Source: a virus
Lineage: Duplodnaviria > Heunggongvirae > Uroviricota > Caudoviricetes
Length of the DNA stretch: 45,442 nucleotides
Direction: 5' to 3' (one strand)
IMG/VR virus record: IMGVR_UViG_2534681703_000014
Span: 1-45,442 of that record
Below, piece after piece: positions 4,749 through 19,040 of the stretch. A model generated the notes under the pieces. That model did not search any database. It saw only the letters and a list, made by a program, of their open reading frames with translations, and was not told where the DNA came from. A program made the translations under genes and the position numbers. Numbering within the stretch: position 1 is the stretch's first letter; every line of letters begins with the position of its first letter.

Positions 4749-5204
4749 TGTTTTTGGTTTTAACTGTTCCGCGTGCGCTTAGCCGCATTCACCGCATCAC
4801 AAAATTCACTTTAAAAAGGGCGGCAGAGCAGTCACGGAGTAAAACTGATACCGCTAAACGCCACCAGAAAATTGATAACAGAGGGCGTTGCAGCGGGGTT
4901 GTCACTTAAGCGTATGGTCAACCTGACAACCCGGTGTCCTCAACGGGGAAGGAATAACCCCGCCATACTTACCGCCGCGCCATTTCGCGGATTGCCACAA
5001 CCGGAAGCGCACGGTCGACGAAAATTTAACGACAGGCTATCTATGAACCAGCAACCTCGCCGTGCGCTTTCGCGTTATGCTCTGACTTTTCAGAGAAATA
5101 TCCTTTCAGTAAACTGTCAGTACCGGATGCTCACCCGTGTCCGGCGCACGCACTCCACCTCACCCGTGGAGAACTCCTTAAGTACCAACCCTCAGGATGG
5201 TGAA

Positions 5205-12366: not shown

Positions 12367-12602
12367 TTTTATGGATCACCTTTCTGATTGATTTCATATT
12401 GGCGAGGTAGCAGGAGTTAAGTAGAATTGCTGCGGGTGCTTGAGGCTATCTGTCTCAGGCATGAACACCAAAAGGCAGATAGAGAAAAGCCCCAGTTAAC
12501 ATTACGCGTCCTGCAAGACGCTTAACATTAATCTGAGGCCATATCTATGCGACACATAGAGATTAGCCTCTTACGGACCGAAAGGTCAAGGAGAAGCAGG
12601 CT

Positions 12603-12758
12603 ATGAAGCAGCGAAAGGCGATGTTAATCGCCCTGATCGTCATCTGTTTAACCGTCATAGTGACGGCACTGGTAACGAGGAAAGACCTCTGCGAGGTACG
12701 AATCCGAACCGGCCAGACGGAGGTCGCTGTCTTCACAGCTTACGAACCTGAGGAGTAA
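12603..12758 (+). CDS. hok: Hok/Gef-family type I toxin (51 aa)
   Basis: Translation MKQRKAMLIALIVICLTVIVTALVTRKDLCEVRIRTGQTEVAVFTAYEPEE aligns by eye with Hok ([52 protein letters not shown]); not in the ORF track (under 60 aa). Confidence 0.7.
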   Translation: MKQRKAMLIALIVICLTVIVTALVTRKDLCEVRIRTGQTEVAVFTAYEPEE

Positions 12759-14255: not shown

Positions 14256-14633
14256 ATGACTGAACGCATAGAATTTGTTTTGCCTTACCCGCCAACGGTG
14301 AACACTTACTGGCGACGTCGTGGCAGCACATATTTTGTATCAAAAGCCGGTGAGCGTTATCGCCGTGATGTGGCGCTTATTGTTCGCCAGCAGCGGCTGA
14401 AATTAAACCTGTCCGGAAGGCTGGCGATAAAGGTGATTGCAGAGCCACCGGATAAGCGCCGCCGCGACCTGGACAATATCCTGAAGGCACCACTGGATGC
14501 GCTGACGCATGCCGGACTACTTATAGACGACGAGCAGTTTGATGAAATCAATATTGTGCGCGGTCAGCTCGTTCCTGGTGGGCGGCTGGGCGTGAAGATT
14601 TGCGAAATCAGAGGCGATGGTAATGGGGCGTGA
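14256..14633 (+). CDS. rusA: Holliday junction resolvase RusA
   Basis: RRRDLDN motif and overall similarity to E. coli RusA by recollection; 125 aa. Confidence 0.8.
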   Translation: MTERIEFVLPYPPTVNTYWRRRGSTYFVSKAGERYRRDVALIVRQQRLKLNLSGRLAIKVIAEPPDKRRRDLDNILKAPLDALTHAGLLIDDEQFDEINIVRGQLVPGGRLGVKICEIRGDGNGA

Positions 14634-14973
14634 TATGTATGAGGTTTTAGATCGCTGGGGGGCATGGGCTGCAGCAGAAAATAGCGGTGTCGATTGGCAA
14701 CCGATAGCAGCGGGCTTCAAGGGGCTTTTGCCACATGGCAAAAAGTCACGTCTCCAGTGTGATGATGATGAAGGCATCATGATAGACGGTTGTGTGGCTC
14801 GGTTGCGAAAGTATAAACCAGAGGAATATGAGCTGCTCATAGCTCACTTTGTTATTGGTGTTTCTCTACGCTCAATCGCGAAGAAACGCAGGTGCTCAGA
14901 TGGAACTATAAGAAAGGAGCTGCAAACTGCATTAGGCTTTATTGATGGATGTATATGCTTGATTCTATCATAA
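14617..14973 (+). CDS. Late-gene antiterminator Q (phage 82/QuuD-like)
   Basis: VLDRWGAW...IAAGFKGL...SRLQCDDD...CSDGTIRKELQ closely resembles the QuuD-type Q sequence I recall; overlaps the rusA 3' end. Confidence 0.75.
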   Translation: MVMGRDMYEVLDRWGAWAAAENSGVDWQPIAAGFKGLLPHGKKSRLQCDDDEGIMIDGCVARLRKYKPEEYELLIAHFVIGVSLRSIAKKRRCSDGTIRKELQTALGFIDGCICLILS

Positions 14974-14986
14974 GTTATGACTGTTA

Positions 14987-15373
14987 CTACTCGTTTGCTT
15001 GAGCTTTCGATTCGGCGTCAGATAAAGCATCAATACGAATATTTATGTTTTTTAATAGCTTATTGTCTAGATCGATAAGACATTGGTTGTAGTGCGCAAT
15101 TTGGTCTGGTGTTAGGTTAGGGTTGGCCAGGCAGTTCGTGATGAATTTTCTGGCCGTTTTTATTTCCCTTTTCATTCTTACATCATTAAGCGTAGGCAAA
15201 CCTATGTAAGCGATAAGAAGAATTACCACATGAGATAAGCCGACAGCAGCTCCAGGCGCCAATGATTTGAAGAAGGCTAATTGAGGAAGCCAGTCAAAAA
15301 GGAAATTCAATCCCGCAGTGATAAGGGTGGTAAACCATGCCTGCATTGCCAGGTAGGATTTAGTGTTCGCCAT
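14987..15373 (-). CDS. Unknown membrane protein (128 aa, about 2 predicted TM helices); third gene of antisense 3-gene cassette
   Basis: Hydrophobic segments WFTTLITAGLNFLF and AVGLSHVVILLIAYIGL; start codon directly abuts the stop of the upstream gene; AT-rich. Confidence 0.5.
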   Translation of the reverse strand: MANTKSYLAMQAWFTTLITAGLNFLFDWLPQLAFFKSLAPGAAVGLSHVVILLIAYIGLPTLNDVRMKREIKTARKFITNCLANPNLTPDQIAHYNQCLIDLDNKLLKNINIRIDALSDAESKAQANE

Positions 15374-15619
15374 TCACCTTCCTGCACTTGCTTCGTTGCG
15401 AGTTTTGAGTTCGCGTAGCAGTAGCGCCAACTCTTCTGCGTCATTTTCGTTTCTAACGCTGACTTTCCTTTTAGCGGTTCTGCCTTCAGGATCGGTGTAG
15501 GTTAGTTCAATATACGCATTCGGCTTTACCCAAACCAAGAACCTAAGCACAGCATATCTGACCGTCGCTGCGACAGCCATGAATACAGTGATGTAAAGCA
15601 TAATGCTTAGGATTGACAT
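15374..15619 (-). CDS. Unknown small membrane protein (81 aa, N-terminal TM); second gene of cassette
   Basis: N-terminal hydrophobic ILSIMLYITVFMAVAATV; 3-nt gap to upstream gene stop. Confidence 0.5.
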   Translation of the reverse strand: MSILSIMLYITVFMAVAATVRYAVLRFLVWVKPNAYIELTYTDPEGRTAKRKVSVRNENDAEELALLLRELKTRNEASAGR

Positions 15620-15622
15620 GAT

Positions 15623-16534
15623 TTAAAGTAGTTTCCTATCTGCCGCCGCTCTGTGGCGTATAACCTTAGTAATACTATAGCGTGGTTTAGACAGCGCGCC
15701 ATTTGTTTCTTTTGTTGTTTCTGTCAGTTCTACAACAAAAAGATCACCCTTACAGAATGCTGCTTGGTTGTGTTCAACCCGTTCAAGAAAAGCCTCATCT
15801 TTCATAGATGCACTAACTTCTTCGCCATTTGGCAGGATGATATCCCAGCTTTTGCCTTGCTTGAATCGAACATTAGCAAAATGTACATTAGCTTGGCGTG
15901 TCGTTACGTGCGTTTTCTCGACAAAGGTGGATTTTGCAGTTTTAAAACTTACTGCTTCAGCTTGCGTCACCCTGACTACCTTATGCTTCTGCTGTGAAAC
16001 TGAGAACGTGGATGGTTTTTCAGTCTGCAGGGGTTTATAGATTAATTTATCCAGTTCTTTTCGGATGATTGGACTGGTTATTAATTTTTGAATGTCGTTA
16101 CTGCATTTAACCTTCTCACCATCCACTTCGATTTCTGCTGTATCTTTTTGTTCATCGACGACAATGGAGCTGATTTTACGCCCTTTGAGCCATTCGATTA
16201 TCCCGAGTACGCCACCTGCGGCAACTCCACCACCTGCAACGAGGCCAAGGGCGTTAATAGTTTTTATGCTCCCCATCACAGCAACAAGCAAAGTAAATGA
16301 ACCTTCTTTTGTTGCCTTGATGTTGACTTTCGGCTCTGCTGTTTCGCCATTAATTATTTTTTCGGCGTGTTCAATCAGGGCACTAAGAGAGGTTAAGGCT
16401 TCGCCTAATGTTTTCGCGTCGATCTGATTATCTGCGTATGCCTCTCCACCGTAGGCAATTTCGATTTCTGTTATTGGCATGTTTTCGAGTTGCTGCGTCA
16501 TCAAAAGCATCCTTTGCGCAAGAGAAATAGCCAC
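15623..16534 (-). CDS. Unknown 303-aa protein with central Gly-rich hydrophobic segment and Lys-rich C-terminal domain; first gene of cassette
   Basis: Long ORF; hydrophobic FTLLVAVMGSIKTINALGLVAGGGVAAGGVLGIIEWL near residues 80-115; start uncertain (GTG 16534, ATG 16510 or 16480); no family recognised. Confidence 0.55.
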   Translation of the reverse strand: MAISLAQRMLLMTQQLENMPITEIEIAYGGEAYADNQIDAKTLGEALTSLSALIEHAEKIINGETAEPKVNIKATKEGSFTLLVAVMGSIKTINALGLVAGGGVAAGGVLGIIEWLKGRKISSIVVDEQKDTAEIEVDGEKVKCSNDIQKLITSPIIRKELDKLIYKPLQTEKPSTFSVSQQKHKVVRVTQAEAVSFKTAKSTFVEKTHVTTRQANVHFANVRFKQGKSWDIILPNGEEVSASMKDEAFLERVEHNQAAFCKGDLFVVELTETTKETNGALSKPRYSITKVIRHRAAADRKLL

Positions 16535-16539
16535 AGGAT

Positions 16540-16622
16540 ACAGATAATTATGAAAAAATCACTAACGCGTACGCAAAAACTATCTTAATCTGTTAAGAGT
16601 GGTCGCTTCGCCACACAACTTA
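16540..16622 (+). promoter_or_regulatory. Candidate late promoter (pR'-like) feeding a short terminated leader
   Basis: GATAAT -10-like hexamer near 16570 about 50 nt upstream of an intrinsic terminator, an arrangement reminiscent of lambda pR'/6S RNA/tR'; no convincing -35. Confidence 0.3.
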
Positions 16623-16647
16623 AACCCGCATCAAGCGGGTTTTTTTG
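16623..16647 (+). terminator. Rho-independent terminator (tR'-like) upstream of the tRNA cluster
   Basis: Hairpin CCCGCA-TCAA-GCGGG followed by TTTTTTTT. Confidence 0.6.
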
Positions 16648-16766
16648 TGTCACTTATCTCGGATAGACATGGTGAATGCGCTGGTGGAGGAGATAAGGGT
16701 GATTTTTAACCAGGTGATTTTTGAATGCTTGCAACATTGATTTCGTAACGTTATTATCCTGCGCCC

Positions 16767-16842
16767 GGCCCTTTAGCTCAGTGGTGAGAGCGAGCGACTC
16801 ATAATCGCCAGGTCGCTGGTTCAAATCCAGCAAGGGCCACCA
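16767..16842 (+). tRNA. tRNA with CAU anticodon, resembling E. coli tRNA-Ile2 (ileX-like); Met cannot be excluded
   Basis: Manual cloverleaf: acceptor GGCCCTT/AAGGGCC, D-arm GCTC..GAGC, anticodon loop CTCATAA, T-arm GCTGG-TTCAAAT-CCAGC, 3' ACCA. Confidence 0.85.
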
Positions 16843-16843
16843 A

Positions 16844-16920
16844 CCGCCACTAGCTCATCAGGAAAGAGCGTCAACCCTTTAAGTTGAGTGTGCGAGGTTC
16901 GAGTCCCCGGTGGCGGTCCA
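16844..16920 (+). tRNA. Atypical tRNA-like gene, apparent anticodon UUU (Lys) with C33 and U73
   Basis: Acceptor CCGCCAC/GTGGCGG, D-arm GCTC..GAGC, anticodon stem TCAAC/GTTGA with loop CCTTTAA, T-loop TTCGAGT with one stem mismatch, 3' TCCA. Confidence 0.5.
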
Positions 16921-16922
16921 GT

Positions 16923-16998
<76 letters not shown>

Positions 16999-17001
16999 TA
17001 T

Positions 17002-17076
<75 letters not shown>

Positions 17077-17465: not shown

Positions 17466-17832
17466 TTCCTTTCTCATGACGAAAAAAGACACGAGCATCC
17501 AGGAATACTCGTGGGACAACGTCCTTTGGATAGCAATTTGCGAGAGGGTGAAAAGTAGCGCGGTCGTCGGATTAAGACCGCGGGACAAAGTCCATGAAGA
17601 ATAATAAGTATTGGTCCCCTTCCGGGGACATGTTCATACTACTAAGATTCAGAAGTGGTTTAAATCCTCAAATTAACATTAATTTCCGATAAGTCTTATT
17701 TCATTTCTTTGCGCCACATCTGGCGCGCATCAAATAACGCCACGCAAAGGGCATCTGCGGATGCCGGTGCTTTTGACGGGGTGTTTTTTACGGGCCGCTG
17801 GTGGCCCTTTTTTATTTACAGGAGAAAAAAGT

Positions 17833-18225
17833 ATGTCTGAACCCTTATCCGGTTCCGGCACGGCTGCGGCGCTCGGCGGGGCGACGGTGTACGGGCTGTT
17901 TACCGGGACGGATTTCGGGATTGTGTTTGGTGCGTTCGCCGGTGCGTTATTTGTGGCAACGATGCCGCAGGCGCTTTCAGCCTGGCGTGTGGCGGCGCAT
18001 TTTCTGGTGTCGTTCATTATCGGCGTGCTGGGGGCAGAGGTTCTGGCGTCCTGGCTGGTAAAGCATACAGGGTTTGACGGTGCACCTGTCGACGCACTGT
18101 GTGCAGTGCTGGTGTCAGTGGTGTCGGTGAAGATTCTGTCGTTCATCCACCAGCAGGATATTGCATCACTGGTGTCCGGTGTGTTCTCCCGCCTGCGGGG
18201 CGGAGGAGGCGGCAATGTTAAGTAA
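17833..18225 (+). CDS. Putative holin (131 aa, multiple TM segments)
   Basis: ATG 17833 with AGGAGA SD; hydrophobic Gly/Ala-rich TM segments; first gene of the lysis cassette ahead of the endolysin. Confidence 0.55.
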   Translation: MSEPLSGSGTAAALGGATVYGLFTGTDFGIVFGAFAGALFVATMPQALSAWRVAAHFLVSFIIGVLGAEVLASWLVKHTGFDGAPVDALCAVLVSVVSVKILSFIHQQDIASLVSGVFSRLRGGGGGNVK

Positions 18226-18493
18226 CCTTCCCGGATTGCTGAATGTGGCGTTATGCACGGTTATCGTGCTGACGCTCTTTTTTTATCGTCGTCGTGACTC
18301 CAGACACAAACCGCTGATGTCATGGCTGGCCTGGCTGCTGATGCTGCTGTATGCCTTTGCGCCCCTCAGCTATCTGTGCGGTCGCCCGTTAGCGGCGAAC
18401 TGGCTGGCGGTGGGGCTTAATCTGCTGTTCTGCGTGTTGGTGATTCGCGCACGCGGGAACGTTTCAAAAATCTTTGTATTACGAAGGCGCTGA
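18215..18493 (+). CDS. Second lysis-cassette membrane protein (holin/antiholin-like, 92 aa)
   Basis: ATG 18215 with GGAGGAGG SD; about 3 TM segments; overlaps the previous gene 3' end and abuts the endolysin start. Confidence 0.45.
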   Translation: MLSNLPGLLNVALCTVIVLTLFFYRRRDSRHKPLMSWLAWLLMLLYAFAPLSYLCGRPLAANWLAVGLNLLFCVLVIRARGNVSKIFVLRRR

Positions 18494-18494
18494 T

Positions 18495-19040
18495 ATGAAG
18501 TCGAAAGATGAAATTTTTGACGAAGTTCTGGGAAAAGAGGGCGGTTATGTCAATCACCAGGATGATAAAGGCGGACCGACAAAATGGGGTATTACTGAAA
18601 AAGTTGCCCGTGCGCACGGATACCAGGGCGATATGCGTGATCTGACGCGCGGACAGGCGCTGGAAATACTCGAGGCGGACTACTGGTATGGACCACGTTT
18701 TGACCAGGTGGCAGCGTTATCCCCTGATATTGCCGCAGAGTTGTGTGATACGGGCGTCAACATGGGGCCAGCCGTGGCGTCAAAAATGCTTCAACGCTGG
18801 CTGAACGTTTTCAACCTGCGCGGGAAACTGTATCCGGATATGGATGCAGACGGACGTATCGGGCCGCGTACTCTTAATGCATTACGGGTATATCTGAAAA
18901 ATCGTGGCAGGGATGGAGAGCTGGTAATGCTGACCGCACTGAACTGTACGCAGGGTGACCGCTATCTGGAGCTGGCAGAGAAACGGGAGGCTAACGAGTC
19001 GTTTGTTTACGGCTGGATGAAAGAGCGCGTAGCAGTTTAA
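18495..19040 (+). CDS. Endolysin, glycoside hydrolase family 108-like with C-terminal peptidoglycan-binding region
   Basis: N-terminal EVLGKEGGYVNHQDDKGGPTKWGIT matches the GH108 signature as I recall it; 181 aa. Confidence 0.7.
   Translation: MKSKDEIFDEVLGKEGGYVNHQDDKGGPTKWGITEKVARAHGYQGDMRDLTRGQALEILEADYWYGPRFDQVAALSPDIAAELCDTGVNMGPAVASKMLQRWLNVFNLRGKLYPDMDADGRIGPRTLNALRVYLKNRGRDGELVMLTALNCTQGDRYLELAEKREANESFVYGWMKERVAV

Follow-up and report, generated by a model that had tools for sequence, protein, structure and literature searches.

This locus raises the question of whether a phage tRNA gene with a lysine anticodon in a non-canonical loop supplies a working tRNA-Lys, serves some other role, or is the remnant of a different tRNA. 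The DNA analyzed, hereafter the window, is a viral stretch of 45,442 nt (IMG/VR record IMGVR_UViG_2534681703_000014) and is a mosaic E. coli lambdoid prophage. It contains four head-to-tail tRNA genes, designated t1 to t4, whose anticodons according to ARAGORN are, in order, CAU (ileZ-like, tRNA-Ile2), UUU, UGU, and UCC. An earlier inspection of the sequence (below, the original prediction) had singled out t2 for C33 in the anticodon loop, a mismatch in the T stem, and U73 before CCA, and had offered three explanations, namely, a pseudo-tRNA, a tRNA with altered decoding, or a tRNA-like decoy or regulatory RNA. All three features are confirmed by the sequence, ARAGORN, and Rfam. Among the explanations, that of a pseudo- or crippled tRNA is supported by ancestry, gene-specific decay, and published rules, whereas we found nothing in support of altered decoding or a decoy. 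We conclude that t2 is probably a degenerate, at most weakly functional tRNA gene descended from a phage tRNA-Arg(UCU).

Table 1. Features of the window that are discussed in the text (Rfam scores of tRNAs refer to RF00005)
Feature	Position	Strand	Basis or remark
DicF sRNA	4818–4869	−	Rfam, 68.6 bits
sok antitoxin RNA	12434–12605	+	Rfam, 106.7 bits
Q antiterminator gene, upstream of the tRNA cluster	14617–14973		Pfam Phage_antitermQ
Two small ORFs of the opposite-strand insertion	14987–15619	−	
303-aa gene of the opposite-strand insertion	15623–16534	−	
Terminator-like hairpin	16622–16642		
Putative sigma-70-like promoter, TTGCAA, 17-nt spacer, TATTAT	16729–16757	+	Consensus scan
tRNA cluster, t1 to t4	16767–17076	+	ARAGORN
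t1, ileZ-like, anticodon CAU (PGAP: tRNA-Ile)	16767–16842	+	ARAGORN; Rfam, 72.5 bits
t2, argN/argO-family scaffold, anticodon UUU, with C33, A51xC63, U73, C31-G39	16844–16920	+	ARAGORN; Rfam, 44.4 bits
t2 anticodon loop, C32 C33 U34 U35 U36 A37 A38	16876–16882	+	Sequence
t2 C33	16877	+	
t2 anticodon UUU	16878–16880	+	
t2 T arm with A51 (16895) and C63 (16907) unpaired	16895–16907	+	Marked 'v' in the Rfam alignment
t2 discriminator U73, followed by CCA	16917	+	Sequence
t3, tRNA-Thr(UGU), 100% identical to E. coli K-12 thrU	16923–16998	+	ARAGORN; Rfam, 73.8 bits
t4, tRNA-Gly(UCC), glyT copy with substitutions T11C and G67A	17002–17076	+	ARAGORN; Rfam, 52.3 bits
Holin and endolysin genes, downstream of the tRNA cluster	17761–19040		

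The position of the cluster (Table 1) matches the ileZ-argN-argO site of Stx phages. The tRNA and late transcript probably starts at the putative promoter directly upstream of the cluster; this promoter is a pattern match, and such sites are not found in this region above the expectation from shuffled sequence. A terminator-like hairpin lies upstream of this promoter. Of the genes flanking t2, t1 was used as the intact control. In t4, T11C and G67A each break one stem pair, and the score falls to 52.3 bits, as compared with 64.9 bits for the allele identical to glyT. A compensated U-A pair at 6-67 is found in 18 loci (65.6 bits). The allele in the window may have arisen by recombination, or it may represent an intermediate that lacks this compensation.

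Between Q and the tRNA cluster, three genes are inserted on the opposite strand. The product of the largest, a 303-aa protein, matches the PADLOC candidate PDC-S42 over its full length (E 3e-53) and is named 'LAPAL motif-containing putative phage structural protein' by PGAP; Pfam detects no domain in it, and sequence comparison with the PDB was uninformative. Rfam also identified two RNAs in the prophage early region, DicF and sok, the latter of which implies a hok/sok-type toxin-antitoxin locus.

ARAGORN calls t2 as tRNA-Lys (anticodon ttt), and the gene matches RF00005 over positions 16844–16917 (gathering score 29, E 2.5e-6) with the lowest score in the cluster. Read directly from the sequence, the cloverleaf comprises the acceptor stem CCGCCAC/GTGGCGG, the D arm GCTC-ATCAGGAAA-GAGC, the anticodon stem TCAAC/GTTGA, and the T stem CGAGG/CCCCG. 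The nucleotides of the tertiary core, i.e., U8, A14, G18-G19, and the GTTCRA T loop, are all kept in the window gene; in its sister alleles they are often lost (U8C, G18A, a destroyed T loop). In the 7-nt anticodon loop, the U33 expected before the anticodon is replaced by C33 in every Lys-type copy seen. In published systems, decoding does not strictly require U33.

One of the four stems is incompletely paired, as A51 faces C63 where the relatives of t2 have A51-U63 or G51-C63. The mismatch that the original prediction listed as an oddity is thus present, but it carries little weight alone, since the T stem of E. coli thrU is also mismatched in the Rfam alignment. The minimum-free-energy fold of window t2 (−25.0 kcal/mol) is not the cloverleaf, which is 2.7 kcal/mol less stable (−22.3 kcal/mol); the two folds coincide for an in-silico C63U revertant of t2 and for its closest intact relative, the gene of locus L147 described below. 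The discriminator base also varies, with G73 in some alleles of the t2 slot (L134 type, L142).

Trivial explanations of these features could be eliminated. A canonical isotype obtained through a different fold, which would have undermined the original prediction, was not found: ARAGORN, Rfam, and PGAP, the tRNA calls of which rest on tRNAscan-SE, agree on the same cloverleaf and coordinates. A sequencing error at C33, the other artifact that had been considered, is excluded, since 279 complete E. coli genomes and over 60 prophage contigs of IMG/VR contain exactly the same 77-nt allele as the window.

The published rules of charging and modification are unfavorable to such a molecule. Lysine identity in E. 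coli depends on mnm5s2U34, U35, U36, and A73, and any other base at position 73 lowers charging (PMC9976931), while lysylation of E. coli tRNA-Lys drops about 100-fold when the 31-39 pair is C-G (PMC1483225). Window t2 has U34, U35, and U36 but carries U73 instead of A73 and C31-G39 instead of A31-U39. ArgRS, in turn, requires A20 and C35, and also U or G at position 36 (PMC9976931); A20 is present in t2, and position 35 is U. Finally, E. coli TsaBCDE cannot add t6A37 to a U33C tRNA, for which C33 is an anti-determinant (PMC8887486). Based on these rules, t2 is predicted to lack t6A37, to be poorly aminoacylated, and to be a poor decoder.

The scaffold itself is that of an arginine tRNA. t2 aligns end to end with the argN gene of Stx phages (anticodon UCG), with which it has in common the acceptor stem, the D arm with A20, the T arm, and U73. 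The identity to F349 argN is about 84% over 77 nt (12 differences), and the anticodon stem differs from that of argN by one fully compensated G-C to A-U change. As U73 is found throughout the argN-type scaffold, it is a family trait rather than a peculiarity of t2; the emphasis of the original prediction on this base as odd was therefore misplaced, intact Arg tRNAs carrying it too. A literature search on ileZ, argN, and argO found no usable papers.

An unbiased sample of loci (denoted by L numbers) was obtained by scanning IMG/VR for the last part of t1 followed by the first part of t3, a pattern that does not depend on the t2 sequence. In the resulting 124 loci, the loop in slot 2 reads CCUUUAA in about 115 cases and UCUUUAA in 3, and an intact tRNA-Arg(UCU) occupies the slot in another 3 (L142, L143, L147); a fourth gene of the latter kind (L157) came from a further scan. 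C33 is still kept in t2 variants with U or A at position 32. The loops of the slot-2 Arg(UCU) genes read CUUCUAA or UUUCUAA, i.e., with U33. The genes of L142, L143, and L147 are built on the same scaffold as t2, with a paired T stem (A51-U63 or G51-C63) and compensated acceptor pairs, and slot-2 Arg(UCU) genes score 53.5–56.7 bits in Rfam versus 44.4 bits for window t2. The comparison with the clusters of Stx and other lambdoid phages that the original prediction had proposed thus places t2 on the argN/argO scaffold, with intact Arg(UCU) genes in the same slot.

Window t2 differs from the closest of these genes, that of L147, in the compensated 4-69 pair, at positions 26 and 32, and by U33C, C35U, and U63C, and the last three substitutions all look harmful. 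Lys-type alleles in which U63 is still paired exist (L134 and L136 types), and hence the break in the T stem postdates the change of the loop. Neither of the single-step intermediates on the t2 scaffold, U33 with UUU or C33 with UCU, was found in IMG/VR or in the metagenome collection, so U33C and C35U could have been selected jointly. The single metagenome hit for an intermediate (L156) proved to be an unrelated tRNA-Lys in a large tRNA array.

Among genomes representing 185,579 species, one per species, t2 carriers are E. coli and Shigella flexneri only; three further hits were unrelated chromosomal tRNAs sharing the anticodon stem. The undamaged Lys-type allele is the commonest (63 of 117 sampled loci), occurs in two cluster arrangements and many prophage backgrounds, and all four isolated temperate phages examined have a t2 allele of the undamaged type. 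For the exact window allele, PGAP gives a tRNA-Lys with identical coordinates and does not flag it as a pseudogene. In 30 carriers, evenly spaced among the 798 complete E. coli genomes that carry t2, PGAP labels the gene tRNA-Lys in 14 and leaves it unannotated in 16. An identical t2, tRNA-Lys according to PGAP, was left unannotated by the depositors of phages vB_EcoM-606R7 (L158, ON470580) and vB_EcoS-689R5 (L159, ON470583). The gene sits near the thresholds of tRNA callers. ARAGORN is too lenient as a damage detector, as alleles with U8C or a D-stem deletion are still called.

Rfam tRNA scores were determined for every haplotype of t1 to t4 in 117 of the unbiased loci. No copy of t1 and a single copy of t3 fall below the threshold; the three such copies of t4 reflect other sequence in that place and not decay. 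The corresponding number for t2 is 35 of 117, a per-copy count that overstates independent events, the copies being related by descent. By haplotype, 9 of the 20 found for t2, all Lys-type, are below the threshold, as compared with 1/40 for the neighbors (Fisher p = 9e-5). In the sampled loci, this loss occurred through at least five independent lesions, namely, U8C (derivatives of which add G18A or G52A), a 1-nt deletion in the D stem, G24T, C25A together with C62T, and an internal deletion. On one contig outside the 117 loci, the T loop is destroyed and CCA is absent. Where the cluster has its second arrangement, in the PPompW prophage of O157 and other STEC, the D-stem deletion is present in all t2 copies seen, next to an intact argO (68.1 bits).

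A higher mutation rate does not account for this pattern. Variant haplotypes of t3 and t4 are about as many as those of t2, and yet their scores remain high; this implies similar mutation rates in the three genes, with damage left in place only in t2. The stem substitutions that persist in t2 are mostly C-to-U changes opposite G, with pairing kept. Together with the compensated change in the anticodon stem, they suggest that the structure was under selection at least until recently.

Codon usage was compared with E. coli K-12 values. In the long ORFs of the window, AGA and AGG are used at approximately 2–3 times the K-12 rates, and so is CGA in the phage genes, whereas the ratio for AAA is about 1.1. 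The AUA, ACA, and GGA codons read by the co-located tRNAs are approximately 1.6–2.2 times enriched. An ancestral Arg(UCU) gene would thus have had a rationale in codon supplementation and a Lys tRNA none, and codon usage fits a lost Arg supplement rather than a needed Lys one. The cluster version of the window has no functional-looking tRNA-Arg, unlike the ileZ-argN-argO version.

We propose that the ancestor of t2 was a lambdoid-phage tRNA-Arg(UCU) of the argN/argO family, the anticodon loop of which would have changed from CUUCUAA to CCUUUAA by U33C and C35U, and that the major allele would afterwards have lost the 51-63 pair by U63C. The RNA would still be co-transcribed with its neighbors from the putative promoter and is predicted to be still processed, probably, as a tRNA-shaped molecule. 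Bearing a Lys anticodon on an Arg body and lacking the features for efficient modification, charging, and use in E. coli, it would be non-functional or at best weakly functional in translation. Freed from the purifying selection that protects the three other genes, it may persist by linkage to them. The homology, the specific changes, and the gene-specific decay across loci are direct observations.

Several other readings have to be weighed against this one. That t2 is an ordinary extra tRNA-Lys raising Lys decoding for phage late genes, with C33, U73, and A51xC63 tolerated, appears very improbable. The calls by ARAGORN and PGAP, a score above the Rfam threshold, and neighbors that decode enriched codons would all be expected of such a gene, but AAA is hardly enriched, E. 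coli itself possesses several tRNA-Lys(UUU) genes, t2 breaks the rules of identity and modification, and from a third to one-half of t2 copies are damaged versus none for t1. A non-canonical role is hardly credible, be it altered decoding, via a U-turn shifted to U34 (with U35-U36-A37 facing UAA) or via modulation of −1 frameshifting at A-rich sites, or a function as a tRNA-like decoy or regulator. While the loop itself is unusual and its positions 33–38 are invariant in the approximately 115 Lys-type copies (a weak argument, as these are closely related), the lesions strike precisely the core, i.e., U8, G18, the D stem, and the T loop, that any tRNA-like function needs, and shifted reading in a 7-nt loop is, to our knowledge, without precedent. 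Tuning of the G/GT −1 frameshift by Gly(UCC) and Lys(UUU) was considered and rejected: the count of GGGAAAG in the window is at chance, and the G/GT junction that precedes the tape-measure ORF contains neither a slip site of this lambda type nor a canonical X XXY YYZ site with AAG. Likewise rejected was t2 as an immunity tRNA for a neighboring nuclease, since the adjoining PDC-S42-like candidate defense gene is unlinked to t2: of 96 Lys-type loci, just 8 have it beside the cluster.

It is also conceivable, though unlikely, that t2 is a functional tRNA-Lys(UUU) on a non-host body that evades the anticodon nucleases PARIS AriB, PrrC, and RloC, so that the phage would go on translating AAA and AAG after destruction of the host tRNA-Lys. 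Phage tRNA-Lys genes neutralize PARIS and PrrC170 experimentally (PMC12409363, PMC11555353). AriB needs U36-A-A-U39-C40|A41 and U16; U39A abolishes cleavage, and A41C and U16C impair it (PMC12409363). With U36-A-A-G39-U40-U41 and C16, t2 differs at every mapped determinant (39, 40, 41, and 16), and C33 abuts the PrrC cut between positions 33 and 34 (PMC2275089). Since Lys is not a target of codon supplementation, a Lys anticodon needs another rationale; the undamaged allele is common and is carried by viable phages; and the appearance of a UUU anticodon on thrU-derived t3 in six loci hints at a demand for a Lys decoder. On the other hand, the validated tRNA-Lys of phage T5 keeps both U33 (loop CUUUUAA) and A73, neither of which is found in t2; C31-G39 and C33 would compromise lysylation and t6A37 in E. 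coli, as described above; of the four tRNAs, t2 alone shows the decay; and its companion t3 is identical to host thrU, a prime target of AriB and P2 Old in published work, so the cluster does not form a coherent resistant set. The phage copy of thrU adds dosage and presumably no resistance. The searchable literature yielded nothing on how C33 affects PrrC; the only available result of this type is that cleavage by yeast gamma-toxin is unaffected by U33C. The more specific proposal that the undamaged C33 allele is a working t6A-less Lys decoder, unseen by PrrC and RloC (near position 33) and by AriB (39–41 and 16), seems unlikely. Decay in a third to one-half of copies does not prove that intact t2 is useless, as accessory counter-defense genes are also often lost in prophages; if t2 did act in counter-defense, its frequent loss would reflect episodic selection. 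It would then be the first counter-defense tRNA of a temperate phage and the first bacterial elongator tRNA using C33 adaptively, which would extend tRNA-based counter-defense to temperate lambdoid phages and make C33 functional in bacteria.

If t2 is instead a degenerate Arg gene, as we consider probable, hundreds of E. coli genomes probably contain the crippled remnant of a tRNA-Arg under the RefSeq label tRNA-Lys, and sequence alone does not justify crediting such a gene with Lys-decoding capacity or with counter-defense. It would provide a natural example of anticodon switching followed by decay, in which intact ancestors, mutated alleles, and further-decayed alleles coexist. Anticodon-shifted and pseudo-tRNA genes in phage clusters are already known, and t2 adds an instance.

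Other anticodon switches were observed in related clusters. In six IMG/VR loci (L134, L135, L138, L139, L142, L145; e.g., L134:3483–3558, minus strand), the thrU-derived t3 carries G35U and A26G, resulting in the anticodon UUU within the canonical loop CUUUUAA, together with A31-U39, A73, and a score of 74.2 bits. Judged by the identity rules, this gene would qualify far better than t2 as a genuine phage-borne tRNA-Lys. In L142, it adjoins the intact Arg(UCU) gene in slot 2. A thrU-derived gene of Escherichia phage SerU-LTIIb (KU052038; L125:606–678), with the anticodon UCU and changes in the D arm, is annotated as tRNA-Arg; here too, within the same family of clusters, a scaffold taken from the host has switched its anticodon.

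The closest known counterparts of t2 are argN and argO of Stx and other lambdoid phages, which occupy the same place after an ileZ-like tRNA downstream of Q and have the same scaffold; the rare Arg(UCU) occupants of slot 2 are nearly identical to t2. It is set apart from this family by UUU in place of UCG or UCU, C33 in place of U33, the unpaired A51xC63, an Rfam score lower by about 10 bits, and frequent further damage. The T5 tRNA-Lys(UUU) that neutralizes PARIS and other phage tRNA-Lys genes that rescue from PrrC170 are likewise phage-encoded with a UUU anticodon, and the T5-type tRNA, like t2, departs from host tRNA-Lys at the AriB determinants of the 3' anticodon stem (39–41) and at position 16. 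However, T5 tRNA-Lys combines the loop CUUUUAA with A73 and a host-like acceptor end and is of proven function, whereas t2 has C33, U73, C31-G39, and what appears from allele comparison to be relaxed constraint. As in tRNA remolding and in tRNA pseudogenes, an isoacceptor body has here received the anticodon of another amino acid by point mutation; successful remolding normally keeps a canonical loop and gains new identity elements, whereas t2 has lost U33 and is without Lys elements. Finally, a natural C33 in a 7-nt loop is known from the initiator tRNA-Met of multicellular eukaryotes (PMC8887486). There, the t6A machinery has co-evolved to accept C33, which E. coli TsaBCDE rejects (PMC8887486), and the initiator works in the P site and not as an elongator.
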